From: Nemertoderma westbladi | Lineage: Eukaryota; Animalia; Xenacoelomorpha | Assembly: GCA_032718475.1 (NCBI GenBank) | Contig: JAUCBJ010006899.1 | Span: 21,808-85,807 of the forward strand | Direction of reading: 5' to 3' | DNA: 64,000 bases | In this document: in pieces, positions 540 to 27,756 of the stretch | Position numbering within the stretch: the first letter of the stretch is position 1 | Layout: each line of letters starts with the position of its first letter | Made by a program: the position numbers and the translations under genes | The notes under the pieces: generated by a model | What the model saw: the letters and a program-made list of their open reading frames with translations, nothing else | What the model was told of the DNA's origin: nothing | Databases searched by the model: none

Positions 540-580
540 TTAATGATTTAACAAGCCCAGAGAGATGCTTCTGAGTCATG

Positions 581-2744
581 TGATAAACAACCGCGACCTC
601 TATACTAACAGCAGAACTGTTGAACAGACTAATACCCGTTAATATCCTTCTGCCAACCTAGTAAGTTCTCGTCTAACCAATAAGACACAAAGACTGCTCT
701 ACTGTTAAGTAAAGGGGCTCAGGAGCGTGATATTACTAAATTGTAAGGGTTGCTAAATACAAAACCGCTACTTACCGTTAGATGGCGCTAATCTGCCGTC
801 CGCTAATATATTTACTAATTTTACACAACTCCTGCAAAATCGCTTGTTCCTTTCTCTACCGATTGCTCAATAGAGAGCTAACTGTTCGAATCTATGAGCC
901 ACGCAGGAATAACCAAAACAATAAACCCGAGTCGGCTCCCTAAGCTTACTTAAGACGAGTGCGAGAGGCCTTGCACTCAGAGTATTCTTACGCCTAATTT
1001 TATCACTATTAAAGCACGCTATTACCTACGTCTTTCTAATCGCGAATACTGGGGTTTCTCTAACGTAATGTGTGAATGCGAGAATATTTAAATATCAAAA
1101 TGGTACAGTAATTGTCTCTCGTGGATAGTACCACTCTGGGTCTACAATTGCCTGCAGCTGGCTTTAGGCCAGCAAATCACTAGCGTTTCGTGCGTACCGA
1201 ATAGTGCGTTCTAGCTGATTGCCCGCTAATGCAAATAACTGCTCAGCGTGAATAGTTTACAGTACACTAATTATTACCTTAGCTACTCTCCGCTATGCTG
1301 CGTACTAATTCTTAATTTTTTACTAATTAATTACAGTCACAAATATTTAACAGCGTACTAATTACTAAGAGTTCCAGAATACGTAATTCTAATTTATCAC
1401 GCAACAGGTTTCGCTAGTAATAGCCTAAATTGCCGTATTACTTTGACCTAATCAGTAACTAATTGTTGTAACTAAGAAATAGAAACCAATCAAAGAGAAA
1501 AGAGCGCCTACCTAAACATTCACAATCATAGGCACACTTCAATAACACACCAATCAGCGTTAGAAATCACAGTTTACAATTATGCAATTCACTACTCGTA
1601 CTCCACACTCAACGTTCGAAACGTTATGATACGTGCAGGCCTCTCCCGGGTACATATAGGACTCCTAACTAACCTGATTCCCGCCCCCCTAATACTAAAT
1701 AGAGACGAAACCTGGATCATCAGCCCCCTAATTACCGTACCGGCGATTGGTCTGCGTACCACAGCGTTAACTTCCCGACCGCAACCGTGACCCCACGCCA
1801 GCGTTGCTCGCTTTGAATCCTCCGCTCTCCCTTAGTCGCCCAACCCCCCGATGTGCCCACCGCCCGCTGGCGCCTTAGCCCTCCATTACGCTAATAGCTA
1901 CCGTAGCGGCACATGCAAATCACAAAGTCTGACAGTCTCAGAAATCCCTTAGGATTATTGCGCAGAAAAGAATCACATAGAACCATTAATCAAAGGTAGA
2001 AATCATAGTTCAATTGTAATTAGCAGTAATCGAAGGAATTATTGAGAAACACAAGCAAGTAATCGCACTAGCAAATCATTTCACGAAATTAATCAAATTA
2101 GCAAATTGCAGAAAGTACGATATCCTAATACAAAATTAGAGACAGCTCAACAGCAGTGAGAATGTGTCATGTGAGTGAGAGATTGATGATAGGCTCTACC
2201 GGCACACCGCCAATTTATAGGTGATCCGGGTGGGATGATGCAATAGGGTGACTCAATCGCTCTCCTATTGGCTCTCCAGTCCATGCTAGCATTAGACCAA
2301 CCTGGAAGCAGTTAATCCAATAAGGAGGCCGGATTGTAGCCCTATTGCTCAAATTATTACCATATATGGTAATGGATCACGTCTCTGGCTGCTGAATGGC
2401 CAGGACGGCGTCCCTATGCTAGCCCTATCAAACTAATATCAGCAAGCACAAAATCCAGGGTCCGAGTAAACTCGCTACCCTGGGACTATCTACATATATC
2501 CTAATACAAAATTACGTAGGTAGGGCTACATACTATACAAAATGGATGGTTTCAAATATATGGGCGTTTTGATTTCCCTACCTAAATACCACTGCGTTAT
2601 TATGCCTTATCTAAAATATCATGCTGCACAACGGACTAATATTACGTACAGTATAACGGACTAATATTGCATACTGCATAACGGACTAATACTGCATACA
2701 GTATAACGACTAATAATGTGGATACAGCGCCATATACCGTAACA
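581..2744 (-). repeat. 3' LTR of element 1
   Basis: Direct repeat of 17401-19564; only 4 substitutions seen by eye (1145, 1240, 1786, 1911). Confidence 0.97.
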
Positions 2745-3233
2745 CCGCTCCAAGGGAAATCATATAATGTTTCCCTCCAATTGTAGAAGAGTATAAGGTG
2801 ATGTATACAAAACAAAATAAATTTCTTCCAACCAATCTAAATAACATAATAATTCTACTATTTACAAATATTGCCATAGATATTGCATAATGAATTACAT
2901 ACAAATTAAATTTACAAAATATTATCTCTCTCATTGTTTAACGATTATTACATACAAATTAAATTTACAAAATATTGTTTCTCGTTCATTCTTACTACAT
3001 AATGATTACTACATACAAAATCAAATATAAAAATTTTGCTAGGGCAAGTGAAAGGAGTAAGCCAAACCCGCAGGTTTGTCTCCCCAATCACTTCCTTCGC
3101 CTCTTTCATAATATAAATTCAAATAACTCAACTAGTGTATATGAGTCTAGTCGAAGATTTTCAAATGCTACAATATACATCAGAGCGACGATGATGTATA
3201 TATCTAGAGTCTGTCGCCCTGTGCCATAATGTA

Positions 3234-4619: not shown

Positions 4620-4625
4620 CGACGG

Positions 4626-6941: not shown

Positions 6942-7702
6942 TATGCCTCGCGTATATACATATATATATATCCCAATAAGTGCCGTTACGTAACCAACTA
7001 CACTGTGGGTAAATCAGTTAGATGCCGCCGAAGGACAGACCTCCCGAACCCCCCCCCGCCTTCCAGCAGTTCAGGTTCGACTCTCTAGATCCCGTCTCTT
7101 CCTAACTAACTATCCTCTAACCTATTCCCATGCATAGCGCAAAAACTTTGGAGATAAACTGGCCGTGACCAACTCACTTTTTGATGCCCAAACTACTCCC
7201 ATTACTCCTACTAAACTACAGTAGTTAGAAAGGACCATAGCCACAATACTCGACTATACCAAACCCACAGGTTTGATAATCGAACATCACACATCCTGCA
7301 AACTACTGAGTGGGGTCCGTGCACGCCTCTGGTGCTACTAACCTTTAGCACCCTAGTTGCACTGTTGGCACCAATCTGTGGAAGTTGCTAAACTCAATTT
7401 ACACTCCTACGTAATATAGCCGTCACCATGGTTTCTAAATGCTATTTTCCAGGCTTCACGACTTTCAAATTACTGTTTATCTATAGACGAATTCTAAAAC
7501 GCGTCTATACACAGCGTCTGGAATTGTCTTGGGTTCACTTCTAATTTTTTAAAATTTTAAATTTTCCAAAAAATTTTTGAAAATAAAATTTTGTTTTGAT
7601 ACCCACCAGACAAAACTCAACGCAAATCACCACAACCCCGCTCCTATGCATTTCCGTGTATTTGCATACGAGGAATGCATACGAAGTGAGTTGCCTCTAA
7701 CA

Positions 7703-8759
7703 CTAACTCTGTTTGGAGGCAGGAGACAAATTATAATCTCCCGTCTCGATACGTGTCTCCTCTAATAACACAATATCTTGGACCGGTCGGTCCAAGGTGT
7801 GTAAACCATTAGTTTTACACTTTTTTGGGTGCGGACACTTGCACCTAATTTTCACAGTGACTGTGCGCACTATGTTTTGCACGTCTGGGTGTGTGTGCGA
7901 GATCACTCCTGTCTCCCAATACTTTCTCTTGACAATGGGTTCGGTTATCAACACGTAATCTCCCCTTTGGAGACTCCGAACCGTTTTGTACCACTTTGTT
8001 CTGGTAGATATGGTGGGAAGATAGTATTCCCGCCAATATTCCCAGAATGTGTACGCCACAAACTGTGTTACTTTCCAGCTTTTACGACTATATAGGTCGG
8101 CACTAATGGGTTCTGATGCCGGCACAAGAAATGCTGGACTCTGCATTAGCAAATGATTCGGCGTTAATGCAACACCGTCTGGCAACATAGCTATCGGACT
8201 CGAGTTTAGGGTATGCTCGATTTCAATGAAAGCTGTGACCAGTTCGTCGTCGGTAAGTTGTTTGTTCACAGGCAACGTCTTAGCAATGGCCTGCTTTACA
8301 GAGCGAACTAAACGCTCCCAACTTCCTCCTCTCCAAGGACTCTCTGGAGTATTGAATCTCCATTCTACTCGTTGCGGCAAAAGTGCTGCAGAAATTTCCT
8401 TATTCTGTGCTACTTTATGAGCCGCATTCAACTCGCTATTCCCTCCGACAAAGTTTGTACCCTTGTCAGAGTAGAACGCCTTTACTAGTCCTCTCCTGGC
8501 CATAAATCTCTTCAAGGCCAGGAGCAGAGATTTGGTCGACATGTCTGCCACACGCTCGATATGTATGGCTCTACTAGCCATACATGTCAGTAGCAGACCC
8601 CATCGCTTGTGGGTCAGCCGTCCACTCTGCTTCAATCGGACCAAAACAATCCACCCCTGTGTTCGTAAAGGGTGGGTCATATGCCTGCACTCTCGCTTCC
8701 GGGAGTTCAGCCATCTCCTGTTCCAATACTCTGGTGTTCACCCTCTTGCAAACCAGACA
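7703..8759 (-). pseudogene. Element 1 integrase core, cut off from pol by two frameshifting lesions (~8760 and ~8633)
   Basis: Alternative frame 8759-8634 reads CLVCKRVNTRVLEQEMAELPEARVQAYDPPFTNTGVDCFGPI; ORF 7703-8680 continues KRWGLLLTCMASRAIHIE, YSDKGTNF, GGSWERLV, W..YLP..RTKW. Confidence 0.9.
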
Positions 8760-11700
8760 GGCGTCGTACTGCCCTGCTTGGCTGCAATAGAATGAATCGC
8801 TGTCTCGCTGCCGACAGACAGTGTAACTTTCCCGCGTGATGCAACCTCTTGTGTATATCCCATAGAATCGCTCTTTGCAATTCCATCGGGTAACTAGGGA
8901 TTATCACTGGGAATCGAAACTGTGAGTTTATGTCGACAGTCTGGATTCTCGATCTATGACAAATCAAACCCTTATGGATTAATGGACTCCATTTTCTAAG
9001 GGGTTTATAGAGAACTGGTCGTTGAGCCGATAATAGATGGAATTCTTTAGGGAAGGCACACATTTGATAATGTTTCAAATGCTTTAATTCCGCTTGATCA
9101 ATCTCATCCTCCGTCAGAGGTTGTTTCAATTTCCGAATTCGCTCACTATTGGTGCTCAATGGTTCTCTCAAATGTTTCGAATATTTTATACAAAGGTACG
9201 AAACGTATCGGCTTAACCACGCAGTTCTTTTACAAATTGTCAGCCAAGAGGCAGACGAATTTAGTAATTTGTCATAAACACTGCATGACTCTAATGCCAG
9301 CGACGGTTGTCCGCTAACCAATGGAAGTTTCGAATCCAAACCCGCAGGTTTGGAAACCAAAGACTCCATTTTGTCGGTCATTTTCTGTCCGTCACTTACC
9401 AACTGTGACTCCGGTTTAGTCTGTAAGGGTGGTTTTACGTCATAACTTACCCTTCCAGACCTAGTAGTCACGTAAGTCTGTTGGTCTGACAGGTCTCCGG
9501 GCCGCTCCAATAACTCTTCAGGCCGCTCTAATGACTCTTCAGGCCGCTCCAATGACTTAAGTTTGGCTTTAGACTTCGACTTAGAGACTTTCTCCACTTT
9601 GACTTCTGCATCTTCAGGCATCGGATTGGTCACTATCTTTAGTCGCTCTGGCCAATGTTCCTGTGTCCTCGTTAGAAAATCAGGTCCATGCAACCAAAAC
9701 TCCTGCGACTCTTCCTGACAGAATTCCGCCGGCATTGCACCTCTCGAAGTTATGTCGGCCGGGTTCAACACTCCCGGACAATGTCTCCATTGTTCCTTCG
9801 TCGAAAAGTCGACGATCTGAGCGCGTCTATTGGCCACAAATGTCTTTAGTGCAATATTGTCGGCCGCAATGTATACTAACACCAAGGATGCGTCCGTCCA
9901 ATAGAATAAGGTCAATGTCGTGTCTAACTCCTCAGTTATTTGCTTACTTACCTCGACCGAAACTACAGCCGCCTGTAACTCTGCACGAGGGACAGTCATG
10001 TATTTGACCGGCATTGTCTTTGATCTAGAAGTCACAAAGGCCGTCTCAAATTTGTCCTGACTTACCTCTCGGCGAAGGTAGGCTACCATACCAAAGCCGG
10101 TGTCACTTGCGTCACTGAACAGATGCCGCTCTAAATCAGTTGGAAATACCAGCTGATTCGGAAAGTAGGAACGGGGTACATCTATATTTTTCAACAGATG
10201 CAACTCGGCTTCCCACTCCCTCCACTGCTTTGCATGTATAGGAGATATTGGTTCGTCCCACTCTAAGTCGGACAACCAAATTTTCCTCATGCACGCTCGT
10301 GCCTGTAATATAACCGGACTGATAAAGTTCATCGGGTCAAATAGTCTACTTAATGTCGATAAGCAAATCCTCTTTGTCAAAACTTTGTCTGGGCTACTGG
10401 GCTCAAATCTAACTCTTACCTGGAACTTATCCGAATTCGGATTCCAAGCGAGTCCCAGTACTCGCGCCATGGGGATTGGTTCTACCCCCAATTCTATGTC
10501 TCCGCTCCCGCGATCCTTTACCGGGAACGATTCTAATAGGGCCTCCGAGTTAGTAGTGAACTTGGTCAGAGGAAATCCCCCTGTAGCCAAGCACTCTTGC
10601 AGGCCGTGAGCCACTTCTATGGCTTGTTCCGCCGTGTCCTTGGACACCAAGCCGTCGTCCATATAGAAGTTTCTCAAGATAGACTCGATTACTTCTACTG
10701 GATACTTACCAATCTGGGCTGTTGCCGTTTTCTTTAGAACGAACAGCGTGCCATTCGGACTATCGCGGGCGCCAAATATCCTAACGTACATTTGGTATGT
10801 AACCACTGGGCCGGATAAGTCTTCATTCTCAAACCAGAGAAAGCGAAGGCTATCCTGGTCTGCCTTACAGGCTCTTACCTGGTGGAACATCGCCTCGATG
10901 TCACAAGTAAATGCGAATCGCCGCTGTCTAAAACGCAACAGTATTCCAATCAAATAGTTATTCAGGTTGGGACCATCCATCAACTCTGAATTCAGGGACA
11001 TACCTCTATAGACTGCTGCGCAGTCGTTGACTACTCGGACTTTGTCTGGCTTGTCGGGGTGAGTCACATAGTGGTGTGGAAGGTAATAAGTCTGGTCTGT
11101 CACTAAGTCAGGGTCCTCTACCTTCCCAGCAAATCCCTTGGCGAAATAGTTGTTGATCTGGGCGCAATACTTCTCCCTAATGTCCGGATTCTTCAACAAC
11201 CGAGCCCTTACTCCGTTTAATCTTTTCAAGGCTAAGCTGTAGTTGTTCTCCAACTTAGGTGGTTGTCGACGCCACAACATTCCAACTTCAAAATGTCCAG
11301 TCGGTAGCAGACGTATGGTGTCTTCCATCATCTCCAACGACCGTTTCTCATCAGTAGACATGGCTAGGTCATATCCACCGGGTTCCATTGCGTCCCTATC
11401 CAGCCATTCGACAGTTCTGGCTCCTGTCTCGAGGTCCTGGCGTATCAATTCCTTCTGTAATTCCTCCTCACTGTATTGGAAAATGTCTAGGTCTCGATAT
11501 TTAGCCGCTTGACCCTCCACTATGTCTGTATAAGTCAAAACGTTAGTCAGATAAGTAGCGTGGGCCGCTGAACCAGACCCACGGGTCTGATAACAGTAGT
11601 CCTCGGGTTCACTATCTGTCCGGTCGTTATGAAGTGGTTCCGACAACCTAACATTATCGGGAATCAACTCCTCGTCCGACTCGCTAAAGTCACTATAGTG

Positions 11701-14652
11701 GTCAATACAGGTTCTCCTAAACTCGTCTATGTCTGGTGGTTCTACTAACGGTGGTTGAGTTATAGGCTGTAATTCGTCGTATCTGTCCATTGGCTTGTCG
11801 CCACCTGTAAACTCATAAGACATGGGTACTCTTGTATACCAACCTAGTATGGTCCTATGGGCATGTGGTCCATTGACATGCGGCTCAGCCGGTCTCGTTT
11901 CCCATATCTGGTGTGCGATCAGCTGTTCTGCACCAATCAACATAGAAACATTCCTATAACCTACCTGGTGTCTCGGTATCCTGAGCTTGTCAAAATACTC
12001 CTGTGCTATGGGACTCATCGGCGGCACCTTACCTAACTGCCTGCCGAATCCCTTCATAGCTAGACACTTAAATCCGTCCAATGGCAAAGCTTTCCGTTCT
12101 TGTCGAGTGTGTTGGTCTCTCGGAAGTAGGGAATCTAGTTCTACCGAAATTCTGTGTCCCTTGAGGTCTCCTACCCCATGCATAGACTTCAACTCTATTT
12201 GGATCTCCTCGGCGTCCTGGAAGCTAGAAACAGCTCTCGCCACTTCCTCGTCGATATAGGATAATGTGGACGCAGTGTCCAACATCACATATATTCGCTT
12301 CGATCCCTTATCGCCAGTGAGTTTCACCGGAATCACGCTAAATATTTCCGACGTGGCCGATGATAAATACGTCCGCGCGCTGGTCGATGAACTATCCGCG
12401 GTGAAACCTTGGCAGGTCACTTCTCTCGCGCTCGACTCGCCATCCTCGTCCGACGAACCTGGTTGGTAACCATCGTCCTGAATGCCGGTGTACATATTCC
12501 TTCTTATCGATACGGGTTCTTTGCTCCCCTTCCTGTGAGGATTTCGCTGTAAGTAACGGTCCGTTGGGGTATGGAAATCCGCATGTAGCAACTTGTGATG
12601 TAGTCTGCCGCATTCCATGCATCCGTCCTTGCTGTTCGGGCACTGCCGCCGTACATGTCCTGGCGCAAGACATGCCCAACAGGTGTCCAACGTCCGCACT
12701 TGAACTCTTCTCTGTTCCGAATTTAATTCCTTGAACCGTCTGCAACTATCCAACTTATGGTCGTCAGATCTTACCTCCTTTAGTAAACAGTATTGGCAAC
12801 CTACAAATCCATCCGGCAACTCCTGTTGCTTTAACCTAGGTCTATCTAACCGCTCACCTGACCATACTCGCGAGTCTGATCTAAAGGCTGGGGTATTCGA
12901 ATTATATCTGTCTACTGAGTTATAAGTCACAGTGGTCCTGTCATCGTCAAAACTTACCATAGACTTACCGGTAACAGGTTTAGACTCCCTCATATTCTCC
13001 TCTGAGAAGTTTGATTTCATCTCTGCTACTGCGTCTGTGGCTATCATGTCATGAATATGCTGAAGTGTCAATACCTTACCTTGGCCCTCCAACTTATTCT
13101 CTAATTTGCGCCATTTCTGTCGATAACGCATGTTTAAACGTCTTATTACGCTCTTTAAAACTTCGGCGTGATCACCATGATGAGGTAGATTCACCGTCTT
13201 CAAGATGTCCAATGCGTTCGAAATAGCGTTCGCTAAGTTCAACAGCTCTAACGGAGTTGTAATCCTTCCGCCCTTACCCAAGTCTTCTACTATCGACTGC
13301 GCCATTTTCGTTTTATTCCCGTAGATGTCGCTAAGCGTCTTCATCGCTAATTCGAATGCCCGTTCATTGCCGACGAAGTTATCAGCAATGGCTCTAGGTT
13401 CTCGATGGAGCATCTGAAGCAAATAGTTGAACTTCTCGTTGGGAGTAAAGGTGCTGTTGGTTAGCTGCTCGTCGACATAGGTTTTGAAGGTCCTCCAATG
13501 CTTATGGTTACCCATAAACTTCTGGGGTTGTTGCGTCGGCAGTCCTTGCCTAGCAGCAAACTTACCTATGTCCCTAAGGGTTGCGTCGTTCCGGGTTAAC
13601 AAATGGTTTAGTTCCGCAGGGTTGTTAAGTCTGGTCCTTTCCCGGTGGTTCCAACTTACCTGCTCCGCGTCCGTCCTTCTTTCCTTATAGTTTCGGGACT
13701 TCTGACGTCTCATTTCTTCCTCTTCATCGCTTGACTCGGTGTCAGTCCTTAGCGCTCGCGATGGTTTGCGCGCCGAGGCCCTGACCCAAGCTTCCTCAAT
13801 AAATCTTTCCGCCGAATTTTCGAAATTGGGATTATGGATATTCGGGACAGGCGTCCTTACCTGAGGTCTATGTGGTATAGTCTCCTCCGATATACGTACT
13901 CGTTGACTAGGCTGGACTTTATCTAATTCAGGCCTGCTGGGATTTGAATTACTTCTTACCTGGGCTGCTTCCTTTAACCGTAGGTTGCTAAGCATGTCCG
14001 TTATAGGTTGGATGTGCGGCGATATAGCTTGCGCTAAACTAGCACTTAACTCATCTCTCGTAATAAATTCCTGGCTAGGGTTCTGTTGTATAGTCGGCTC
14101 TATCTGAGTAATCCGCTGTCTCTCATATGATCCCTCTTCCGGTTTAACCCGGAAGTTCTCCGTCGAACTGGGTCGGCGCTCCGTCCGCGTATTCCAAACC
14201 CGCGGGTTCGGTTCGCCAAGTACTCGTCCTGTCGGAGTTTCTCTAAACTCTCCGTTGTCGCGTTCGGTGTATAGTGGTGCGGTGTTCCGATGACGTAGAT
14301 CCTGGGCGATGGGTGAAGCACTAATACCAACTGGCGTGCGATATGTAGAGAACGGTTTAGCGATCCGTGTACTCGTAATAGCTGGACCGGGTATAGGAAT
14401 TCTGGTCGTCGTCGACTCGCGTATAGTCGGAGTTCTCGCTTCCTGTTCGGCCTTCTGCAGTGCGAACAGTTCTCGCAACTCAGTCCCTACACTCGCCCCA
14501 CATTCTTCGATCATTCGCATCCCCTTCTCGGCGATTTCGTTCGCCTTCCTAGTCCGTTCTTCGCTCTCTAAACTTAATCTCGCACTTTCCAACTGCGCCA
14601 GTTTACGTTCTTCTTCTTCCCTCGCTCGTCTCGCTGCGCCCTCTTCTTCCAC
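8707..14652 (-). CDS. Element 1 Gag-Pol (Gag core, BEL triple Zn knuckle, aspartic protease, RT, RNase H, integrase HH)
   Basis: KFMGNHKHWRTF gag motif; CQYC/CWAC..GH/CMECGRLHHKLLH knuckles; MLDTAS protease; YYLPHH, CDIEAMFHQV, FYMDDG RT; FSDAS, RAELQAA, WTDAS, NPADITSRG RNase H. Confidence 0.95.
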   Translation of the reverse strand: MEEEGAARRAREEEERKLAQLESARLSLESEERTRKANEIAEKGMRMIEECGASVGTELRELFALQKAEQEARTPTIRESTTTRIPIPGPAITSTRIAKPFSTYRTPVGISASPIAQDLRHRNTAPLYTERDNGEFRETPTGRVLGEPNPRVWNTRTERRPSSTENFRVKPEEGSYERQRITQIEPTIQQNPSQEFITRDELSASLAQAISPHIQPITDMLSNLRLKEAAQVRSNSNPSRPELDKVQPSQRVRISEETIPHRPQVRTPVPNIHNPNFENSAERFIEEAWVRASARKPSRALRTDTESSDEEEEMRRQKSRNYKERRTDAEQVSWNHRERTRLNNPAELNHLLTRNDATLRDIGKFAARQGLPTQQPQKFMGNHKHWRTFKTYVDEQLTNSTFTPNEKFNYLLQMLHREPRAIADNFVGNERAFELAMKTLSDIYGNKTKMAQSIVEDLGKGGRITTPLELLNLANAISNALDILKTVNLPHHGDHAEVLKSVIRRLNMRYRQKWRKLENKLEGQGKVLTLQHIHDMIATDAVAEMKSNFSEENMRESKPVTGKSMVSFDDDRTTVTYNSVDRYNSNTPAFRSDSRVWSGERLDRPRLKQQELPDGFVGCQYCLLKEVRSDDHKLDSCRRFKELNSEQRRVQVRTLDTCWACLAPGHVRRQCPNSKDGCMECGRLHHKLLHADFHTPTDRYLQRNPHRKGSKEPVSIRRNMYTGIQDDGYQPGSSDEDGESSAREVTCQGFTADSSSTSARTYLSSATSEIFSVIPVKLTGDKGSKRIYVMLDTASTLSYIDEEVARAVSSFQDAEEIQIELKSMHGVGDLKGHRISVELDSLLPRDQHTRQERKALPLDGFKCLAMKGFGRQLGKVPPMSPIAQEYFDKLRIPRHQVGYRNVSMLIGAEQLIAHQIWETRPAEPHVNGPHAHRTILGWYTRVPMSYEFTGGDKPMDRYDELQPITQPPLVEPPDIDEFRRTCIDHYSDFSESDEELIPDNVRLSEPLHNDRTDSEPEDYCYQTRGSGSAAHATYLTNVLTYTDIVEGQAAKYRDLDIFQYSEEELQKELIRQDLETGARTVEWLDRDAMEPGGYDLAMSTDEKRSLEMMEDTIRLLPTGHFEVGMLWRRQPPKLENNYSLALKRLNGVRARLLKNPDIREKYCAQINNYFAKGFAGKVEDPDLVTDQTYYLPHHYVTHPDKPDKVRVVNDCAAVYRGMSLNSELMDGPNLNNYLIGILLRFRQRRFAFTCDIEAMFHQVRACKADQDSLRFLWFENEDLSGPVVTYQMYVRIFGARDSPNGTLFVLKKTATAQIGKYPVEVIESILRNFYMDDGLVSKDTAEQAIEVAHGLQECLATGGFPLTKFTTNSEALLESFPVKDRGSGDIELGVEPIPMARVLGLAWNPNSDKFQVRVRFEPSSPDKVLTKRICLSTLSRLFDPMNFISPVILQARACMRKIWLSDLEWDEPISPIHAKQWREWEAELHLLKNIDVPRSYFPNQLVFPTDLERHLFSDASDTGFGMVAYLRREVSQDKFETAFVTSRSKTMPVKYMTVPRAELQAAVVSVEVSKQITEELDTTLTLFYWTDASLVLVYIAADNIALKTFVANRRAQIVDFSTKEQWRHCPGVLNPADITSRGAMPAEFCQEESQEFWLHGPDFLTRTQEHWPERLKIVTNPMPEDAEVKVEKVSKSKSKAKLKSLERPEESLERPEELLERPGDLSDQQTYVTTRSGRVSYDVKPPLQTKPESQLVSDGQKMTDKMESLVSKPAGLDSKLPLVSGQPSLALESCSVYDKLLNSSASWLTICKRTAWLSRYVSYLCIKYSKHLREPLSTNSERIRKLKQPLTEDEIDQAELKHLKHYQMCAFPKEFHLLSAQRPVLYKPLRKWSPLIHKGLICHRSRIQTVDINSQFRFPVIIPSYPMELQRAILWDIHKRLHHAGKLHCLSAARQRFILLQPSRAVRRLSGLQEGEHQSIGTGDG

Positions 14653-16197
14653 TCACGACCTTTCTTCATACAATGCGCGTCTTCTTTTCTCGATCTCGAG
14701 TTCGCGTTCCTTGCGTCCGCGTTCAAGTTGAAGCTCGCGCTCCTTCTGTTCACGATCGAGTTTCTTGCGCTCGCGTTCGGCTTGGAGTTCGCGTTTCTTC
14801 GCTTCCTGTTCGCGTTCGAGTTGGAGTTCGCGTTTCTTCGCTTCCCGCTCGCATTCAAGTTGGAGTTCGCGTTCTCTCTGTTCGCGTTCGAGTTCCTCGC
14901 GCTCGCGCTCGGCTTGGAGTTCGCGTTCCCTTTGCTCGCGTTCCGCTCGCTCGCGCTTACTTATCTCTTCCAACTCTCGTAACTCTGCGTCAAACTTACG
15001 TGTGCGCTCCCGTTCCCGCTCGGCTTCCTTCCGTGCTTCCTGTGCACGCAAAACTTCCGCCTGCTGTTCGTCTAGTCGGCGTCTTCTCTCCTCCGCCGAG
15101 TTGTGAGAAACAAGGGATCTAGCACATATTACCTTACCTCGCGTGTGACTAACCTGGGAATCGCCGCTGTCTCTAGATGCATCGTCGGGTGGAGTTAACG
15201 TCCTCTGTTGGATGTTCTCCGTCGTCGGTAGCACCTGGCCTGGTACCACCACTCCATTCTGCATCAGCCAGCTAGTAACTTCCCTCTGATAACGGCGCTC
15301 TTCCTTATCTTGGATCTCTTCCCGCTCCACTAAGTCTCTTAACTCTGCGTCACTCACCTGAGTCGCCTGCGCTTGTGATGCCCATAGCAGCCAGTTCTCC
15401 GTCCTAACTCGTCGGAATCGCTCCGATAACTCGCGGTGCTCTAACAAGGCTGCTAAAACCCTGTCGTAAATCCTCGTCGCCACGTCGCTTGACTGAGACT
15501 CCACTGCCTTCTTCGCTAGGACTGCAAGCTCCTCCGTCTGCTTGAATAACGCTGAGTTATATCCTCTTCTAATCTCTGCTAACTCTACCCTCCCGATGTT
15601 CGCTGGGTCAGCTAACATCTTCCTTACCTTGTCCGCCGTCCGAGTTATATGTCCGGCATGCGCGCGAAGTTTCTTCTTTATCGCGATATCGAACTCTCTA
15701 TCACTCACCTGACTTACGCTCGGTGGACTTGAAGGATTATTTCGGGAACTACGGGTACTCCTTACAGCCGTCGGGACCACGGCACTTACCATACCCACAG
15801 GTCTGGAAACCGGGCTCCGGGCTCTCGCTTCTGCTACACTACCCTCCCTATCACTCACCTCTGTCCGGGCTGCTGTGCAGTCCTTCCTTACAGTAGCGGT
15901 AGGGGATCCTAATACTATTACTTGAGGTTGTTGTTCTTCCTCACTAGTCACTGTCTCGTCCTCCTGTTCACTTACGTCAGCGTCGCTCGCTGCGTCGTCA
16001 TAGTCGGCATTGTCATCAACAGTAATGTTTACGCTATCGTCAGTCGGCGGTCCAGCCGCCGTCTCGTAGCTGTCCTCTAGTGCCTCTTTGTCTGAGACAC
16101 TCATAGTCCAAATAATATTTGCCTTCCGGCAAAAATCTCTCGCAAAGTTCGAGATATAATTATAATTTAACCGAAATACGGTCAAATTATTTGTCAA
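14653..16197 (-). CDS. Element 1 N-terminal Gag region (acidic/disordered plus ERE-rich coiled coil), in frame with Gag-Pol across one TGA
   Basis: 514-aa ORF (first ATG ~16103); stop TGA at 14655-14653 immediately followed by in-frame GTG GAA GAA; repetitive R/E tract 14690-14960. Confidence 0.8.
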   Translation of the reverse strand: MTNNLTVFRLNYNYISNFARDFCRKANIIWTMSVSDKEALEDSYETAAGPPTDDSVNITVDDNADYDDAASDADVSEQEDETVTSEEEQQPQVIVLGSPTATVRKDCTAARTEVSDREGSVAEARARSPVSRPVGMVSAVVPTAVRSTRSSRNNPSSPPSVSQVSDREFDIAIKKKLRAHAGHITRTADKVRKMLADPANIGRVELAEIRRGYNSALFKQTEELAVLAKKAVESQSSDVATRIYDRVLAALLEHRELSERFRRVRTENWLLWASQAQATQVSDAELRDLVEREEIQDKEERRYQREVTSWLMQNGVVVPGQVLPTTENIQQRTLTPPDDASRDSGDSQVSHTRGKVICARSLVSHNSAEERRRRLDEQQAEVLRAQEARKEAERERERTRKFDAELRELEEISKRERAEREQRERELQAEREREELEREQRERELQLECEREAKKRELQLEREQEAKKRELQAERERKKLDREQKERELQLERGRKERELEIEKRRRALYEERS

Positions 16198-17400
16198 ATA
16201 ATCAGTTGGTCCAAAATGTCAAAATAAATTCGCAATGCAATATTGCGAATTTAATGGGGTATATAGTTATAGCAAATACTAGCACAATATTTAAACAAAA
16301 TATTATTATATAGCTACTATATAATATTAAATACCGGTATAGCACAAAATAACTCTGAATCTAATACAAAATATTCAAAATAAACTTGCCGCCCGAATAT
16401 TTCTAATTTTATATATAGCTCTAATCAACGTAATTTTAGTTTCAAATATTATATGTATCCACTAGCGCGTGGCTACATCTTCGGGTTGCGACTCTCTCTA
16501 ACTCTCTCTCTAACTTGAGCGATTCAAAACCATGGCCGGCTAAACCTAAATATCCTAACTAATAAATTGAGTTCAGCTTCGCAGTTAAACAACCGATAAT
16601 TTTTTACTGCTTCCACAAACACACCGGCGCCAACAGAACAACTAACCTTGTTTGCTGTGAGATTCCACGTCCGCGTCCAAAGATTCAGGCCCTTCGCTGA
16701 TTGCAAACCGAACCCGCAGACCCACACGAACCCCAAACTCAGAAGTCCCGTCTTGCCATGTATCTCCAGATGGTATAAAATAACTAAGCGGTTACCTAAC
16801 ATACCGTTACAAAACTCTAGAATTTTACAAATAATTTTGACCGAAACTGAATTCTCGCAAACCTAGCTAATAATTTTCAAAAAACTTACTAATTACAGTT
16901 TGCCCTAAGGCCTAAGGAACTGCTGTATTCGCAATTAGCAAAACGCACTACCGTACATCCACTGTATGCAGTACAGTAAGTAAAACAGTACACCAACCTA
17001 ACAGCCTAATGATACTGTGTGTGGTACGGCAAACAAATGTCCTTCTACCGTACGCAGTAACAGCAATCAGCCTAATGTACTACTGTACTAGTGTACGCAG
17101 CCAGTGAATACAGTAATATAAACTAACAGCCTAAAGGAATATACTCAATGTTCTACCGTACGCTAGCCTATAGCCTACAGCAGACGATCACGTGCTCCAA
17201 TTTATTGCCTAATACTATGATACTACTATCAGCCTAAGAATACTCTATCTGCCTTACTGTACGCAGTACAGCAAAGCAATACAGCACGTATCACTGATAC
17301 AAAGTATCAGTGATCTAAACTAACAGTAGTCTAAACTAACAGCCTAAGAATACTCTATTTACTGTACGCTACAGCCTACAGCAAACAAAACACGTATCAC

Positions 17401-19564
17401 TGATAAACAACCGCGACCTCTATACTAACAGCAGAACTGTTGAACAGACTAATACCCGTTAATATCCTTCTGCCAACCTAGTAAGTTCTCGTCTAACCAA
17501 TAAGACACAAAGACTGCTCTACTGTTAAGTAAAGGGGCTCAGGAGCGTGATATTACTAAATTGTAAGGGTTGCTAAATACAAAACCGCTACTTACCGTTA
17601 GATGGCGCTAATCTGCCGTCCGCTAATATATTTACTAATTTTACACAACTCCTGCAAAATCGCTTGTTCCTTTCTCTACCGATTGCTCAATAGAGAGCTA
17701 ACTGTTCGAATCTATGAGCCACGCAGGAATAACCAAAACAATAAACCCGAGTCGGCTCCCTAAGCTTACTTAAGACGAGTGCGAGAGGCCTTGCACTCAG
17801 AGTATTCTTACGCCTAATTTTATCACTATTAAAGCACGCTATTACCTACGTCTTTCTAATCGCGAATACTGGGGTTTCTCTAACGTAATGTGTGAATGCG
17901 AGAATATTTAAATATCAAAATGGTACAGTAATTGTCTCTCGTGGATAGTACCACTCTGGGTCTAAAATTGCCTGCAGCTGGCTTTAGGCCAGCAAATCAC
18001 TAGCGTTTCGTGCGTACCGAATAGTGCGTTCTAGCTGATTGCCCGCTAATGCAAATAACCGCTCAGCGTGAATAGTTTACAGTACACTAATTATTACCTT
18101 AGCTACTCTCCGCTATGCTGCGTACTAATTCTTAATTTTTTACTAATTAATTACAGTCACAAATATTTAACAGCGTACTAATTACTAAGAGTTCCAGAAT
18201 ACGTAATTCTAATTTATCACGCAACAGGTTTCGCTAGTAATAGCCTAAATTGCCGTATTACTTTGACCTAATCAGTAACTAATTGTTGTAACTAAGAAAT
18301 AGAAACCAATCAAAGAGAAAAGAGCGCCTACCTAAACATTCACAATCATAGGCACACTTCAATAACACACCAATCAGCGTTAGAAATCACAGTTTACAAT
18401 TATGCAATTCACTACTCGTACTCCACACTCAACGTTCGAAACGTTATGATACGTGCAGGCCTCTCCCGGGTACATATAGGACTCCTAACTAACCTGATTC
18501 CCGCCCCCCTAATACTAAATAGAGACGAAACCTGGATCATCAGCCCCCTAATTACCGTACCGGCGATTGGTCTGCGTACCACAGCGTTAACTTCCCGACC
18601 GCAACGGTGACCCCACGCCAGCGTTGCTCGCTTTGAATCCTCCGCTCTCCCTTAGTCGCCCAACCCCCCGATGTGCCCACCGCCCGCTGGCGCCTTAGCC
18701 CTCCATTACGCTAATAGCTACCGTAGCGGCGCATGCAAATCACAAAGTCTGACAGTCTCAGAAATCCCTTAGGATTATTGCGCAGAAAAGAATCACATAG
18801 AACCATTAATCAAAGGTAGAAATCATAGTTCAATTGTAATTAGCAGTAATCGAAGGAATTATTGAGAAACACAAGCAAGTAATCGCACTAGCAAATCATT
18901 TCACGAAATTAATCAAATTAGCAAATTGCAGAAAGTACGATATCCTAATACAAAATTAGAGACAGCTCAACAGCAGTGAGAATGTGTCATGTGAGTGAGA
19001 GATTGATGATAGGCTCTACCGGCACACCGCCAATTTATAGGTGATCCGGGTGGGATGATGCAATAGGGTGACTCAATCGCTCTCCTATTGGCTCTCCAGT
19101 CCATGCTAGCATTAGACCAACCTGGAAGCAGTTAATCCAATAAGGAGGCCGGATTGTAGCCCTATTGCTCAAATTATTACCATATATGGTAATGGATCAC
19201 GTCTCTGGCTGCTGAATGGCCAGGACGGCGTCCCTATGCTAGCCCTATCAAACTAATATCAGCAAGCACAAAATCCAGGGTCCGAGTAAACTCGCTACCC
19301 TGGGACTATCTACATATATCCTAATACAAAATTACGTAGGTAGGGCTACATACTATACAAAATGGATGGTTTCAAATATATGGGCGTTTTGATTTCCCTA
19401 CCTAAATACCACTGCGTTATTATGCCTTATCTAAAATATCATGCTGCACAACGGACTAATATTACGTACAGTATAACGGACTAATATTGCATACTGCATA
19501 ACGGACTAATACTGCATACAGTATAACGACTAATAATGTGGATACAGCGCCATATACCGTAACA
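17401..19564 (-). repeat. 5' LTR of element 1
   Basis: On the element strand starts TGTTACGG and ends GTTTATCA; flanked by TSD TCATG. Confidence 0.97.
19034..19091 (-). promoter_or_regulatory. Putative LTR promoter: CCAAT box (19091-19087) and TATAAA (19039-19034)
   Basis: Consensus motifs in element orientation about 50 bp apart; untested. Confidence 0.45.
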
Positions 19565-20199
19565 TCATGCTTGACCTGGGGTAGGTTTTTAGCAGTTTTA
19601 ATTTAGAAAATGACCGTTCTGCTGTAATTTTCAATTCAATTTCAATTTCAATCCGGGATAGGCCCGGGCCTTTAATTTCGGAAGTTCACCTTTCGACATC
19701 TTATATATTGCAAAAAACCCAACACCAAAGGTCACCATAAAATGTTTAAGGTTGATCAGTATTTATTCATGAATGTGGGTGATATGATAGGCCTAATGAT
19801 AATATGTCGTAGCCGTAGTCATCTAATGCGATCCATGTAGAAATAGACAGACGTATACTGCTTCATTTCATCACTAAGACGACTGCAGCTGCGCATCCAT
19901 GTATACACCTCTGTGGAATCTACCGACTTTGGTGGATCTAGATCACCTGCTCATCTGCAGCATCCAATCCAAAACTATTTTCCGTCCTAAATGAGTTCTA
20001 ATGAATAAGTTCTTGTCAATGTATTGCTGAACTGTCTTTTCAACTCACTCAAGATGTGATTGATAAATGGCAAAAATACAGTAACTGTATTCTATGCCCT
20101 GGCAGGATTAGCACGATTGCATAGCACCCAACTATTCTCGGAATCGTGATGTCCTGATTTATTTCTGTAGCAATATTTTTAGCTTCTGTAAATATTTTA

Positions 20200-21260: not shown

Positions 21261-22843
21261 AAGTCTAACTAACGACTTGCTAACTAAATGATACCTCATA
21301 CTGTAGTTTTCCCTTATTGACTTGAACGACTTTATCTCTTCATGAAATGTGCATATGCCTGTCCAATATTGTTTCTGCAATTCTGTAGGGCCTCGTTCAA
21401 AACTCTTTGCTGAAATGAACTAACAGCAGTCTTTAGTGAAATGATTACATTGAAATATTATTATTTATATTTATTTATTCAATATTTATAATAAGTATTG
21501 CGCTTGGATTGACTAGGATTGCGCTTGATTTTGCTTTTTTACCTTGCGAAAAATAAGAAAAATTAGAAAATGTGAAAATATTTTTGTATTGAAATAGCAT
21601 CGAATTAGAAAAGATTTGCATGTAATTTGAGCAAAATCCATACACACACTCAAAAGTTATTACAACTTTAGTGGCTGCATGGCATATACCAAATCAGAAC
21701 TCAATATCCAATATTGGTTTATGTAGTAATGAGGCTGTCTACAGTATTTACATAATGGCCCGTATGCATAAAACACTTACGACGATCGTACTGTAACTTT
21801 ACGATGATCGTAAATATAATTGGTATGCATAAACATTTCCGATAATTGTGACTTTGTGATGATCGTAACTTTACGATTGCTAATACCTGCCCGTAAAAGT
21901 TACGATAGGGATTGCTATCAGCTGAGATTAACAGGTTGCCAGGCAACTTGCCAAAACAATACTGTTTAATGTGGGTATACTGTAGCTGCTTTGTTATGTT
22001 TACGTTACCGGTATGGACACACAATTCTGCATCAGCTACAGTATATTGGCGAGCGACTTAGTGAGTACTGCCATAATGGTTTTACTTATAAGTATTCGCA
22101 CATGCTAAAATGTGGAAACAGCTGGAAATACCTAGGAACACCTGTTTACCTGTACCTGTAACGTGCATTTTTTTAAAACATGTTTGACAACAAAGGGTAA
22201 ATTACTAGGTAGGCCCTACAATGATAATTTGTTAACAAACTGCACAACTCCCCCCCCCCCCCCCCCACCCACATTTTTCTAGAAATCGTAATGAAACTGT
22301 ATGAAATTTGAAACAGAGATAGTAGTTGAGTTTGAATTTTTATCTTCGCTACAAGCGTTAGAAAAACGTACTGTATCTCCTTCGATATTGCACCAGTTAC
22401 AGCACAGTTATTCTTCGACCTTCTAGTAATTACTGTAGTTAGTAGGCCATACGACAGCTGACCTTGCAAGGATTCCAAATATGTATAATCATTTGAATTT
22501 GGTTGGAAAATGGCTGAGCCATGGGTATTCGAATGTTGTATGGAACATATGTACTGTCTGGCCATAATGTCTGACCACAGAAAATGAAAGCATTGCAAAT
22601 CCGACTAGCCCGTTTCCGACTCGTTTCCCCTATAATACAAGTGTGCATGGCGTTAAAATACTTTGCATCTTTTTGAATATTTCGCAACTTCAAAATTGTA
22701 ATACAAATGCAGAAGTTCCAATCAGAGGTTGGATGGAAGAGTGAGCGGTGAATTGTAGCGAATCATGATGGTCCCATGTTCGAAACCGGTTGAATATTTG
22801 ACTTTATACACAAGTATGAAAATCGAGGAAACCGTGAAAGTGT

Positions 22844-23740
22844 GTGGTTCAACAGTCAGATAGTAACACAGTAACAGTCTGTCGTGCTGATTTACCGGTT
22901 GTATTGGTTTTTTCAAACTATTTTGGATTTGTTGTTTCTACCTACATCCAACATATTTTGCACATGGAACCTACCAAAAGGAAAAAGAACTTTCCACCAC
23001 TTCACTCATCATCACCGCTTCCCGGAGCAAGTATGGTTAGCCTTAGCGGTAGGCCTGCCGGTACCGGTACAACCGCTAAACGCACCAGTCTTCCATTAGG
23101 CCTAAAGCGAACCACTTCAGGCCCAGGATCAGGCTCTAAACAACAACAACGTGAAGCTAAGTCTACCAACTTCTCAATGTTCCTACCATGCGATGACTGC
23201 CCTGCTTTGTTCTCAAACCCAGTCGAGTTGGAACAACACCGGAACGTATCCCATGCAAAGGACGATGATGACAGCGAAATTGAACTGGTTTCAGTGGATT
23301 CAGAAACCTCTTGCAGCCAATGCCGCCTATGCCACCGCAATGGTTCGGAATTTAAGGACCAATGGGTTGGCTGCTGGGGTGGATATGATTTTTGGATCTG
23401 TTGCGACTGTGCATACAAAGAACTTCCCTTTCACTTCACTTTCCTATCGAAATTCTCTGAGGTTCAGCGATGGGATGGTTCCGCTATCGGTGCGGATATA
23501 CGTATACGGCCGGGTCAGTCCCCAGAAACCTGTAAACTGCGACAAGAGCGAGCTCGCGAGGTCTACCAACTCAACAAGGATATAAAAGACTCTGACGGTG
23601 ACAAAGCGGTAATCAGTTACAGCACTCGTCTGGATGGGTCCATATGGAAATTCACAAAGCATGAGGACGGTAAATGGAAACAAGACCAAGCTTGGGAATA
23701 CAAGGGCCACTCTGGCAAACCCCTTTCTCAGGGAAACTGA
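22844..23740 (+). CDS. LINE ORF1 protein with C2H2 finger and PHD-like Cys cluster
   Basis: CDDCPALFSNPVELEQHRNVSH; CRLC...WVGC...WICCDC; IRIRPGQSP motif; directly upstream of APE-RT. Confidence 0.6.
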   Translation: MVQQSDSNTVTVCRADLPVVLVFSNYFGFVVSTYIQHILHMEPTKRKKNFPPLHSSSPLPGASMVSLSGRPAGTGTTAKRTSLPLGLKRTTSGPGSGSKQQQREAKSTNFSMFLPCDDCPALFSNPVELEQHRNVSHAKDDDDSEIELVSVDSETSCSQCRLCHRNGSEFKDQWVGCWGGYDFWICCDCAYKELPFHFTFLSKFSEVQRWDGSAIGADIRIRPGQSPETCKLRQERAREVYQLNKDIKDSDGDKAVISYSTRLDGSIWKFTKHEDGKWKQDQAWEYKGHSGKPLSQGN

Positions 23741-23759
23741 TAGGAGGAGAGGACCGCAA

Positions 23760-26546
23760 TTCATCCGATCGCGACTGCAGATCGAATCAGCCACCTGAAA
23801 TACCGAAACCTTTGCTCAATTGTTGTAGCTTCAATGCCCAATCGATTTGTAATAAACTTCCTGATCTTAATGCGCTACTTTCCATCTGTGACTTAGACGT
23901 TACAGCAAAACGTGGCTCACTGACTCTGTACCCGATGCATTGATTAATGGGGATAACAAATATAGAGTTTTCCGTAAGGATCGTAAGTCACGGGGTGGGG
24001 GATGTGCATTATTGATCAAAAACACTATTAAATGTGTTCCAGTTTCTACATCTAATTATGTAGGTGAATCTGAGATTGTTGCGGTAGACCTTGTGGGTAA
24101 CACACCTGTGCGCATGGTCTGTGTTTACCGAGCTCCCAGCTCGACATCAGTTAATGACGAGCTGTTGATTACTGCCCTTTCCGATTTGTGCGATGTAAAT
24201 TTTCCATGTATTTTTGTAGGGGATTTTAATCTTCCTGATTTTGACTGGAAAGAGTTTTTGTACCCAGATCAAATGTTGTACAATAGGTTTGCGCTTTTTA
24301 CATTAGAGAATGGTTTATCGCAGCTGCAATTTGAACCCACTAGGGAGTCTAATGTTTTGGATCTTGTTTTCTCATCCGATGACATGGTTGTTTCCAGTGT
24401 AGCCACATTAACTGGTTTTTCCACTAGCGATCATGATTCTGTTACTTTTAATGTTTTAGCACCAGATCAGTACGTAGATGAGTTTAAACATGGTTACTAT
24501 GATTTTAAACATGCGAATTATCCTGATTTTACTTATTTTATTGACGGTTTTAATTGGTGCGAACAATTTCAAACGTGCGATACAGTAGACGACTTTTGGT
24601 GCACTTTAGTTCCTTATTCCCTTTAAGAAATTTAAACCAAATGTGAAAATGCATCCAGCTTTTGTAAACAACCTTCAAAGGAAGAAAAAAAATAATTTGG
24701 CGCCGTAGACACACACCGAGCAGTATGTTAGAATACAAAAAAGTCGCACTTGCAGCATCACGAGCAGCGTTTAGAGCTGCATGTGTTAAAGAAAACAAAA
24801 TTTTATCGTTGGGAAAGCCGGATGCAATTTTTAAGTACGTAAATTCGAAAAGGGTAAACAAGTCTGGTATATCACCGCTAAAATTTGGTGGTAGTACTGG
24901 TGTCGATGATGCTACCAAAGCTCACATATTTTTAACTGTGTTGTCCGAAAATTTTACTGTAGATAATAATGTTGTGCCTGATTTTTCCCGCAGAGTGCCT
25001 CAAGGTGTTAATATTTCTAAGATTGACTTTTCACCTGTTAATGTATATACAATGCTACGTAAGATTTCAGCTAAAGTTAGCAGGACGCCTGATGGATTGC
25101 CAAGCTTTCTTTTTTCGAAACTTTCATATCTGCGCCCCTGTCTGCTATATTTACCGTTTAGTTCGAAACAAATATGCTTCCATCGATTTGGCTCACCGCT
25201 GACGTCATTCCACTGTTTAAAAAGGGCAATCCATCTGACCCCTACAACTATCGTCCCATTTCATTAACCTGTATAGCTTGCAAGCTAATGGAAATGTGTA
25301 TTAAATATGAATTATCAGCATATTTACTTAGACTTAAACTAATTACAAAAGCACAGCATGGTTTTTTAAAGCGCAAATCCACATGTACTCAATTACTTTA
25401 ATCTGTGAACGAATGGTTTAAATAAATTGACTGCCGTGATGCATTTGATGTAATTTATATTGATTTTGCTAAAGCCTTCGATTCCGTTGTTCATACTAAA
25501 CTTATAGCCAAATTATGTAGTTATGGTATTAGCGGTAATCTTATTGGTTGGTTGAAAGCCTTTCTTTCAAATCGTACTCAACGCGTACTTGTTGCAAATA
25601 ATTATTCAAATTATTGTAAAGTGATTTCTGGAACTCCTCAGGGGACGGTTCTGGGGACGTTATTATTTGTGTTGTACATAAATGATTTACCGGATACTAT
25701 ACACCAAGTAGAGTGCAAATTATTCGCAGATGACGCTAAACTGTTTGCACCATCTGCTAATCGGACATTTTGAGTTCTGCTTTATCTGGTCTAGAATGCT
25801 GGGCTACAGAATGGCAACTTACTATAGCTGCTCACAAATTTCACGTGCTATATCTTGTTGGTAACAACAACCGTACCCAGTATTGCCTTTACAATAAGAT
25901 TTTTAAAGAAGAAACTTATTGCAAAGACTTAGGTGTCACAATATCAAACAATTTAAAATTTGACAAGTACTGTCGTGAGAAAGTTGCTAAGGCCTACAAA
26001 ATTGTGAATATGATTTTCCGCTGTTTTTACACAAAGAATCGACAAGCCATCATGCTTGCTTATAAATCGTACGCATGTCCCTTATTAGAATATTGTACTC
26101 CTGTATGGTCCCCATTCCTGCTCACGTCTATTGACCTAGTGGAGAGTGTACAGCGGTACTTTACACGTAGACTTTACTTACGGTGCAGATTGTCACGTAA
26201 TAATTACATCGACCATCTCAACTTTCTTTCTTTGCAACCTTTAGAATTGAGACGTATTATTTTCGACCTCAAAATGGTATTTTCCATTGAGCACAATTTA
26301 GTCGATCTTAACTTCGATGATTTCTTCCACCGGCCAACCAGACCCGGGCTCAGAGGTCACAATCATAAATTGTTTGTAAATAGAACCAGACTCAATCAAT
26401 GTAAACACTATTTTGCTAACCGTGTTGTGCCTATTTGGAACTCGTTGCCTGCTGGTATTGTTGAATCAAACAGTAATACAACTTTTTCGCATCTCATCAC
26501 TGATCACAATTTATTGGAGTTTTGTCACTTTGATCGCCATATGTAA
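23760..26546 (+). pseudogene. CR1 ORF2 (AP endonuclease + reverse transcriptase), multiple frameshifts and stops
   Basis: FNAQSI.NK, RKDR..RGGG, VYRAP, GDFN, LDLVF, SDH; YRPISLT, QHGF, IDFAKAFDSV, GTPQGTVLG, LFADD, KDLGV, LEYC..VWSP, RGH..KL, NRVV..WNSLP. Confidence 0.92.
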
Positions 26547-26954
26547 TATTTTAAGTGGTGTGTATTGTTAATATCAATAAATTAGGACTCTGCGGGGAGT
26601 ATATGAAGGACTATTATTTTCTAATTTTATTTTTTGTATTTTTACTGTATTTTTTGGTAATTTATAAGATTGTACTATAATGAAACTAATATGCATAATA
26701 TTGTATTTAACTGTTTAAAAATCAGTTCAACCTACTGTATGACGTATTCTCCGTATTCTCATACATTTAAATATGATTTACAGTACATAGAACATATATA
26801 TTATGTAATAACTGTGTAATTTTAATAGATCGTCCCTAAATAGACAGCCTGGGCGGTCTCTCTCCTCAAATCATACTGTGTAGGCCTATTGTTTTTATTC
26901 ACTGTTTGTATTTAATTAAAGATGAGTGTGTATTAATTAAAAAATTTAAATTAG

Positions 26955-27756
26955 GGACTTTCCAAGTAAATGTAGGGGATATATGTTGGTCAGAGCGCAT
27001 CAGTCCTCTGTATCTCGAACTGTCCACTGCGTCTCTACAGCTTTAGCATCGAAATCAAACCAGTTCATATTTTTCCATGAGGACAATGACGCTGTTCTTA
27101 ATAAGGCTGCTTTTCAATTAAAATCCGGAATTCCTAATATCCTTGATGCGGTTGATTGCACCCATGTCCGTATCCAGCGGCCAACAATAGAACCCATATC
27201 CTACTACAACAGGAAGGGGTTTCACTCTGTAAATGTCCAAGCAGTGTGTAATGCTAATTACATATTTAGCCATGTCACTGCGAAGTGGCCTGGTTCAGTA
27301 CATGATGCAAGGATATTCGCGGAAAGTTCCTTGCCATCAAGTTTGGAGGAATGGCGTCTGTTGGGTATTTTATTAGTTTACAGTGCATTTACCCTAACGC
27401 ATTATCTTTTAACGCCATGCAAATCGGCGCTAAATTGCGCACAATGTGCCTTTAATAAAAGGCAGGCACAGACACGGATCGTTATAGAATGTGCCTTTGG
27501 TAAATTGAAAAGACGGTTCCCGTGTTTATCAGCTACAGCCAACACATTCCGACTGAAACTGGACAGGGTGTGCAATATGATTGTGGCTGTATTCGTCTTG
27601 CACAATATAGCCACTCATCGTCAGATACCGTTGCCACTTGGTGAAGATGAAATCCCTGGTGATAACTGTGGTGATGATAATATGTGCGATGGCGAAGATC
27701 AACATCATGACCCCGATACTGCTCCTGGGGTAGACTTGCGGAACCACTTGACCTGA
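26955..27756 (+). pseudogene. Harbinger (DDE_Tnp_4-type) transposase, degenerate
   Basis: TFQVNVGD..QSSVSR, AVDCTHVRI, YNRKGFHSVNVQAVC, WPGSVHDARIF, RIVIECAFGKLKRRFPCL, LHN; the expected LGDSAY motif reads LVYSAF. Confidence 0.85.

Follow-up and report, generated by a model that had tools for sequence, protein, structure and literature searches.

The 64,000 nucleotides (nt) analysed here, called the window, belong to contig JAUCBJ010006899.1 of Nemertoderma westbladi (positions 21,808 to 85,807). They carry on the minus strand a BEL/Pao long terminal repeat (LTR) retrotransposon of 18,984 base pairs (bp; 581-19564), termed Element 1, and on the plus strand a second BEL/Pao element, termed Element 2. 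Element 1 probably primes its reverse transcription as Tf1 does, in cis or in trans, with RNA of its own LTR. The bases next to its 5' LTR can pair with a stretch inside the same LTR, and no site for a transfer RNA (tRNA) is seen there. Because pairing of the same kind is seen again, with other letters, in independent BEL/Pao relatives and in Element 2, self-priming is the most economical reading of the arrangement.

Published accounts treat self-priming as established in Tf1, as a proposal in the case of Tj1 and as implicated in the Tf1/sushi group; for the plant Tcn1 (Ty3/gypsy) and TAR (Ty1/copia) lineages it is predicted. The Belpaoviridae profile of the International Committee on Taxonomy of Viruses (ICTV) describes a primer-binding site (PBS) of 18 nt that can base-pair with the 3' end of tRNA-Arg or tRNA-Gly, LTRs 0.2-1.2 kb long and genomes of 4.2-10 kb. 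A literature search, to which subscription journals were mostly out of reach, found no paper on self-priming or on an LTR intron in BEL/Pao elements. PBS, primer binding and tRNA are not mentioned by De la Chaux and Wagner 2011.

Pairing between the LTR and the bases that follow it

The element strand directly 3' of the 5' LTR of Element 1 reads GTGATACGTGTTTTGTTTGC. TGG is absent from the first 60 nt after the LTR, so that a tRNA finds no place there for its CCA end. Of the 11 pairs that the first 11 of these bases (17400-17390) can form with LTR bases 18456-18446, GCACGTATCAT, 9 are Watson-Crick and the 2 terminal ones are G-U; the 3' end of GCACGTATCAT faces the first base after the LTR. 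A reading made earlier from the sequence alone had proposed this LTR boundary, the lack of TGG and the 11-nt pairing that ends at the LTR edge. All three were borne out with every coordinate, the boundary by the agreement of both LTRs with the CATGA duplication (Table 1). Post-LTR bases complementary to the element's own LTR RNA, a mark of Tf1-type priming, are present in Element 1. The self-priming pairing of Tf1 is 11 nt long.

Among helices anchored at the first post-LTR base, the one with GCACGTATCAT was the best; the runner-up has 9 pairs, of which just 4 are Watson-Crick. The duplex energy at the candidate primer site is -14.6 kcal/mol, and values of -11.3 and -14.2 were obtained for relatives.

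The leader of Element 1 contains a tandem duplication of about 106 bp (17284-17400, minus strand) in which the last 5-6 LTR bases, the PBS and the leader hairpins are repeated. In the second PBS-like copy (17284-17300) the eleventh base is Watson-Crick with the LTR site, and the duplex reaches -16.0 kcal/mol. The leader fold has a z score of -5.41 and includes the hairpin at 17290-17314. The duplication is present in most of the family depth, and rare joints skip it (17247>17359, 17278>17387).

Element 1 belongs to a very high-copy family, which was found at very high depth in DNA sequencing runs filed under one organism label by three studies. Family contigs, 4,720 of them from run X1, are 85-100% alike. 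When variants with a share of at least 10% were counted, 35 variant places were found in 1,191 nt and none in 17390-17400 or 18446-18456; since just 0.65 variant places are expected in the two 11-mers, their invariance is not significant. A variant LTR (two contigs of X1, one of X3) has three site positions changed, all by transitions that keep a standard pair, and its last site base makes a Watson-Crick pair where the window copy has G-U. Both wobble positions are Watson-Crick somewhere in the family, position 11 in downstream copy B and position 1 in the variant LTR. Within the family the substitutions seen between the two sites are one-sided only, transitions that keep the pairing. Run X6, which is guessed to be RNA, gave no cover at the site or at the PBS, and no transcript starts or ends came from the contigs.

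Complements at predicted splice junctions in BEL/Pao relatives

The relatives are 80 metagenome loci (36-43% identity, from an alignment of 25 sequences), and distant direct repeats were found in 22 of them. A complete 3' LTR fixes the LTR end in 12 relatives, and TGG follows the LTR in none of these. An initial search for contiguous complements gave a clear case in the L071/L072 family only. Of ten relatives tested with fixed LTR ends, eight carry a cognate complement that is 10-12 nt long and anchored 0-4 nt downstream of the LTR. It is contiguous in two of the eight (L059 and L006, 10 and 11 nt) and split in six, with a GTAAG-type donor and a polypyrimidine-AG acceptor at the split. In L008, L031, L047, L051 and L072 the 10-12 Watson-Crick pairs would arise solely on removal of an intron of 71-186 nt, whose donor is GTAAG or GTACG and whose acceptor is again polypyrimidine-AG. 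The split complement of L015 consists of 9 Watson-Crick pairs and extends to 11 pairs when one G-U is counted. Neither a split nor a contiguous complement was found by the anchored search in L022 and L026. With non-cognate sequences the contiguous maxima were at most 8 throughout, and the split maxima in the relatives' LTRs were at most 10, except for a value of 13 for the L006 LTR with the sequence of another element.

An unanchored scan was carried out for consensus splice sites bounding introns of 40-400 nt whose junction has a complement of at least 11 Watson-Crick pairs within 700 nt downstream. Such a complement was found in 20 of the 80 loci, against none with reversed junctions and two in the same-sense control; two pairs among the 20 each represent a single family twice. 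For 17 of these matches the complement follows CA at a distance of 0-4 nt, and it begins with GT in 15 of the 17. Contiguous 10-mer complements were present in 4/80 loci as against 1/80 in the control.

A consensus LTR intron that would create a matching junction occurs in L008, L015/L016, L021, L031, L047, L051/L042, L052, L054, L055/L063, L056, L060, L061, L009, L072, L074 and L076. These candidate introns are 71-344 nt long with a GTAAGT-type donor and a polypyrimidine-AG acceptor, and the junction would be an exact complement, 10-15 nt long, of bases that lie 0-4 nt beyond the LTR end. Three pairs of related families (L055/L056, L047/L054, L009/L061) keep the pairing by compensatory changes on both sides. 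In a quick tree, most subclades of the relatives include loci with the signature.

The post-LTR sequence of Element 2 is a different one and, again, matches the LTR of the element itself. The LTR end of Element 2 is placed at 50522 (..GTCACA), the sole CAGT in 50491-50600 with a match of more than 3 nt. From this putative end, the post-LTR bases GTAACTAAA form 9/9 pairs with 50340-50348, which 8 of 5000 shuffles equalled. In Element 2 neither a split nor a contiguous complement reaching 10 nt was found, and the 9-nt match appeared only on anchoring at the putative LTR end. Elements 1 and 2 share an 11-mer, AGGTTAGTTAG, upstream of the candidate primer; by a rough estimate about 0.3 such matches are expected by chance.

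Element 1 was also considered as a case of the splice-built type, in which the junction of an LTR intron complements the post-LTR bases, and this was rejected. The anchored search gave no split complement of at least 10 nt, and the best, of 8 nt, has a poor donor. For Element 1 this search is uninformative, because non-cognate sequences reach 11 in its long LTR.

The LTR of Element 1 does hold a candidate intron of 130 nt, placed downstream of the site (18292-18421, minus strand), with the donor GTACG and an acceptor after TTTCTATTTCTTAG. Its exon junction is not complementary to the PBS, and its acceptor is covered unspliced by one contig of a run guessed to be RNA.

Element 1 resembles the splice-junction relatives in the GT after CA, in pairing over 11 pairs with its own LTR RNA and in a comparable duplex energy, and differs from them in that its complement is uninterrupted. 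It would be the intron-less form of a self-priming habit of BEL/Pao elements; in most relatives the complement exists only after removal of an LTR intron. Across the clade the complement ends where a primer must end, a tRNA site is missing and the post-LTR letters track the element's own LTR; the match in Element 1 is therefore likely to be functional, and its function is likely to be priming. For BEL/Pao as a group, Elements 1 and 2 included, the data lean slightly towards replication without tRNA, in which LTR RNA of the element itself is the primer, host splicing of an LTR intron assembles that primer in most lineages, and Element 1 is an intron-less case whose loop from primer to PBS is by far the longest to date.

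Proposed priming of Element 1 and its alternatives

In the proposed mechanism the transcript would start at or before 18456. The RNA would fold back, and the stretch 18456-18446 would pair with the post-LTR bases 1,046 bases downstream. The RNase H of the element would then cut after 18446, and the freed 3'-OH would be extended, so that synthesis of minus-strand DNA would start from the LTR edge instead of from a host tRNA. The sequence-only reading had proposed such tRNA-independent priming. The missing TGG, the LTR-PBS pairing and its recurrence with other letters in the relatives and in Element 2 support that proposal, whereas the promoter geometry offered with it is not supported and the intron in most relatives was unforeseen.

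Several observations weigh against self-priming of Element 1. The chance level of the match was determined on mononucleotide shuffles of its LTR. An anchored helix of at least 11 pairs of any standard kind was found in 360 of 2000 shuffles, one with at least 9 Watson-Crick pairs in 75/2000, and a contiguous run of 9 Watson-Crick pairs with an offset of 0 or 1 in 19/2000; when 9 Watson-Crick pairs in any helix at offsets 0-2 were accepted, 54 of 500 shuffles qualified. The post-LTR sequences of ten other elements gave up to 8 contiguous pairs with the Element 1 LTR, and its own sequence gave 9. By itself, the match in Element 1 is modestly beyond chance and only suggestive.

Element 1 also departs from the pattern of the relatives. 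Its complement is uninterrupted, and the pair at the 3' terminus of the would-be primer is a G-U wobble. Site and PBS are 1,046 nt apart, compared with 56-226 nt in the relatives and 175 nt in Element 2. A fold of the 1,306-nt R-U5-leader gave the LTR-PBS pairing an ensemble probability of about 0. On the quick tree Elements 1 and 2 stand on long branches outside the cluster of relatives, and because of this long branch the argument from kinship is loose for Element 1. In a rare copy of the family the larger part of the site is deleted (joint 18380>18455, with a depth of 78.8 in X3). A search for spliced forms of the LTRs of six relatives found none in any of the 80 loci, and since no locus carries a spliced form, splicing in the relatives is something that we infer.

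The start of the transcript raises a further difficulty. A TATA-like motif, TATATGTA, had been noted 22 nt before the site, and it is there. At its second T (place 18476), however, 65% of the family depth in X1 and 69% in X3 show a different letter, so the motif is not a conserved feature. The spacing from a TATA box to the start is usually 30-31 nt, and counted from TATATGTA it would put the start on the A of TCAT, which belongs to the 3' end of the site rather than to its 5' end. AATAAA and ATTAAA are absent from the Element 1 LTR, and R and U5 are therefore not delimitable.

A better TATA, CCTATAAAT, lies at LTR position 526, 560 nt farther upstream, with TATCAT about 28 nt after it. It is part of a second core-promoter-like module (19006-19041, minus strand), in which CCTATAAAT is followed at about 28 nt by TATCATCAA; the module resembles that of the candidate primer, CCTATATGT ... 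TATCATAAC.

A rival reading is that the match arose by chance and that a host RNA primes by pairing with GTGATACGTG. Such an RNA could be an internal tRNA fragment or a tRNA half, as in elements of the copia and Ty5 types, or another small RNA. The same match occurs in 1-11% of shuffles depending on the criterion, and non-cognate sequences reach 8 nt in the Element 1 LTR, where matches come easily because it is long. Priming by half-tRNAs without TGG is known in Ty1/copia lineages. tRNA genes were found neither in the window nor in the 60 of the 80 relative loci that were scanned. This explanation does not account for the 20/80 loci in which the post-LTR sequence matches the junction of its own LTR, and it sits poorly with Element 2, whose different post-LTR sequence, in the same genome, matches its own LTR as well. 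A shared host primer is disfavoured because post-LTR sequences differ widely among the relatives, and Rfam found no RNA family in the window. We therefore regard chance with a host primer as unlikely. Still less probability is given to a pairing that is real and selected for another role (leader structure for packaging, dimerisation, translation or LTR splicing) while another primer is used. Such a role would suit the strongly structured leader, and in the relatives the complement spans splice sites and could regulate splicing. It would leave unexplained why the complement is anchored 0-4 nt after CA in 17 of 20 matches, the sole place where a minus-strand primer must end, and no alternative primer site (TGG) is present at Element 1 or at the 12 relatives with fixed ends.

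Within self-priming itself, the primer could be supplied in trans by a second, co-packaged or shorter element RNA. The near-zero predicted probability of the 1,046-nt fold-back favours this arrangement. The relatives need a spliced RNA for the junction while their LTRs keep the intron, which suggests a primer in trans or retention of the intron in the template. No observation speaks directly against priming in trans, which as a separate scheme we consider improbable. Self-priming by the LTR RNA of Element 1, by whichever route, is the reading retained here.

Compared with known systems, Element 1 is like the Schizosaccharomyces pombe elements Tf1 and Tf2, the S. japonicus element Tj1 and the Tf1/sushi group in that a tRNA site is lacking and the post-LTR bases complement the element's own LTR transcript. 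It differs in being a BEL/Pao element, in the 1,046 nt between complement and PBS and in the two G-U pairs, and it is known here from sequence alone. Membership of Element 1 in Tf1/sushi, with its Ty3/gypsy chromovirus pol, was rejected, as Pfam points to BEL/Pao and the best homologues are BEL/Pao proteins. In the Tcn1 and TAR lineages, too, self-priming outside Tf1/sushi was deduced from sequence; these are plant elements of other superfamilies, and no LTR intron is described for them. With canonical BEL/Pao elements Element 1 shares the gag-pol domains and their order, TG..CA LTRs and a short target duplication, but it has no TGG, and its LTRs of 2,164 bp and its length of 18,984 bp are about twice the upper limits given by ICTV. 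The tRNA-Arg or tRNA-Gly PBS of the ICTV description is not found in it, as judged by the missing TGG in 60 nt.

What is new here is an intron-less, very large (19 kb, with 2.2-kb LTRs) and very abundant case, together with an independent test on metagenome relatives. If self-priming is true of the BEL/Pao elements of marine animals, the description of Belpaoviridae as tRNA-primed needs revision, and annotation tools based on the PBS miss or misclassify such elements. Host defences that act through 3' tRNA fragments on tRNA-primed elements would not reach BEL/Pao self-primers. Through the link to splicing seen in the relatives, a retroelement would have a novel means of coupling its replication to host RNA processing. 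The Element 1 family can be studied in public data.

Anatomy of the elements and other features of the window

Element 1 is assigned to BEL/Pao because DUF1759, Peptidase_A17 and DUF5641 are found in its frames. The listed Pfam E-values for Peptidase_A17, DUF1759 and DUF5641 were 4e-38, 1.5e-09 and 1.8e-17 respectively. Thus the gag, pol and integrase domains of the group are present, as are TG..CA LTRs and a target duplication within the 4-6 bp of the group. The LTRs start with TGTTACGG and end with GTTTATCA. Comparison at a fixed offset gave 4 mismatches over 2,164 bp, and the element is a young insertion. Coordinates of the features are given in Table 1.

Table 1. Positions of the features of Elements 1 and 2 within the window
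Feature	Position	Strand	Remarks
5' LTR of Element 1	17401..19564	-	2,164 bp, TG..CA; fixed-offset comparison with 581-2744
3' LTR of Element 1	581..2744	-	2,164 bp; fixed-offset comparison (offset 16,820)
Target-site duplication CATGA, upstream copy	19565..19569	-	read from sequence
Target-site duplication CATGA, downstream copy	576..580	-	read from sequence
Primer-binding position GTGATACGTGT	17390..17400	-	abuts 5' LTR; without TGG
LTR-internal complement GCACGTATCAT, candidate self-primer, 5' LTR copy	18446..18456	-	LTR positions 1109-1119
GCACGTATCAT 11-mer, 3' LTR copy	1626..1636	-	offset 16,820
TATA-like TATATGTA	18471..18478	-	22 nt upstream of the site; not conserved in the family
Second copy of LTR end and PBS, GTATCA GTGATACGTGC	17284..17300	-	in tandem duplication of ~106 bp
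Perfect 11-bp hairpin ATCACTGATAC ttt GTATCAGTGAT	17290..17314	-	sequesters second PBS-like copy
gag-pol reading frame, DUF1759 and Peptidase_A17 (Pao)	8707..16218	-	521 codons, in-frame stop, 1,981 codons
Integrase C-terminal part, DUF5641	7703..8737	-	frame differs from pol frame
Two more open frames, 795 and 463 codons	3234..7013	-	same frame, single stop between; no family match
Element 2, second BEL/Pao element	49992 onward	+	3' LTR cut by window end

In a large protein collection the closest homologues of Element 1 were BEL/Pao proteins of cnidarians, echinoderms, molluscs and others, with at most 44% identity. A scan of IMG/VR with its reverse transcriptase region gave no relative. For the 795-codon downstream frame the best score against the ESM Atlas was 0.81, which is uninformative. 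The gag-side frame is very long and abundant in charged repeats.

Element 2 contains arrays of 36-bp and 60-bp tandem repeats (59039-59794 and 52165-52464, plus strand). The flank of Element 1 at 1-508 is repeated at 38404-39331, about 38.4-39.3 kb away (94-97% in parts), in an array whose unit recurs about every 163 bp. Two near-identical tandem copies of a 3.16-kb unit occupy 40678-47000 on the plus strand, with a 4-base shift of the offset at about 41513. An animal host is indicated by the best hits, which are to marine invertebrates, together with fragments of a non-LTR retrotransposon endonuclease, a transposase frame with DDE_Tnp_4 (Harbinger-type) and a tetraspanin-like frame at 22838-27756 and 35758-36834 on the plus strand.

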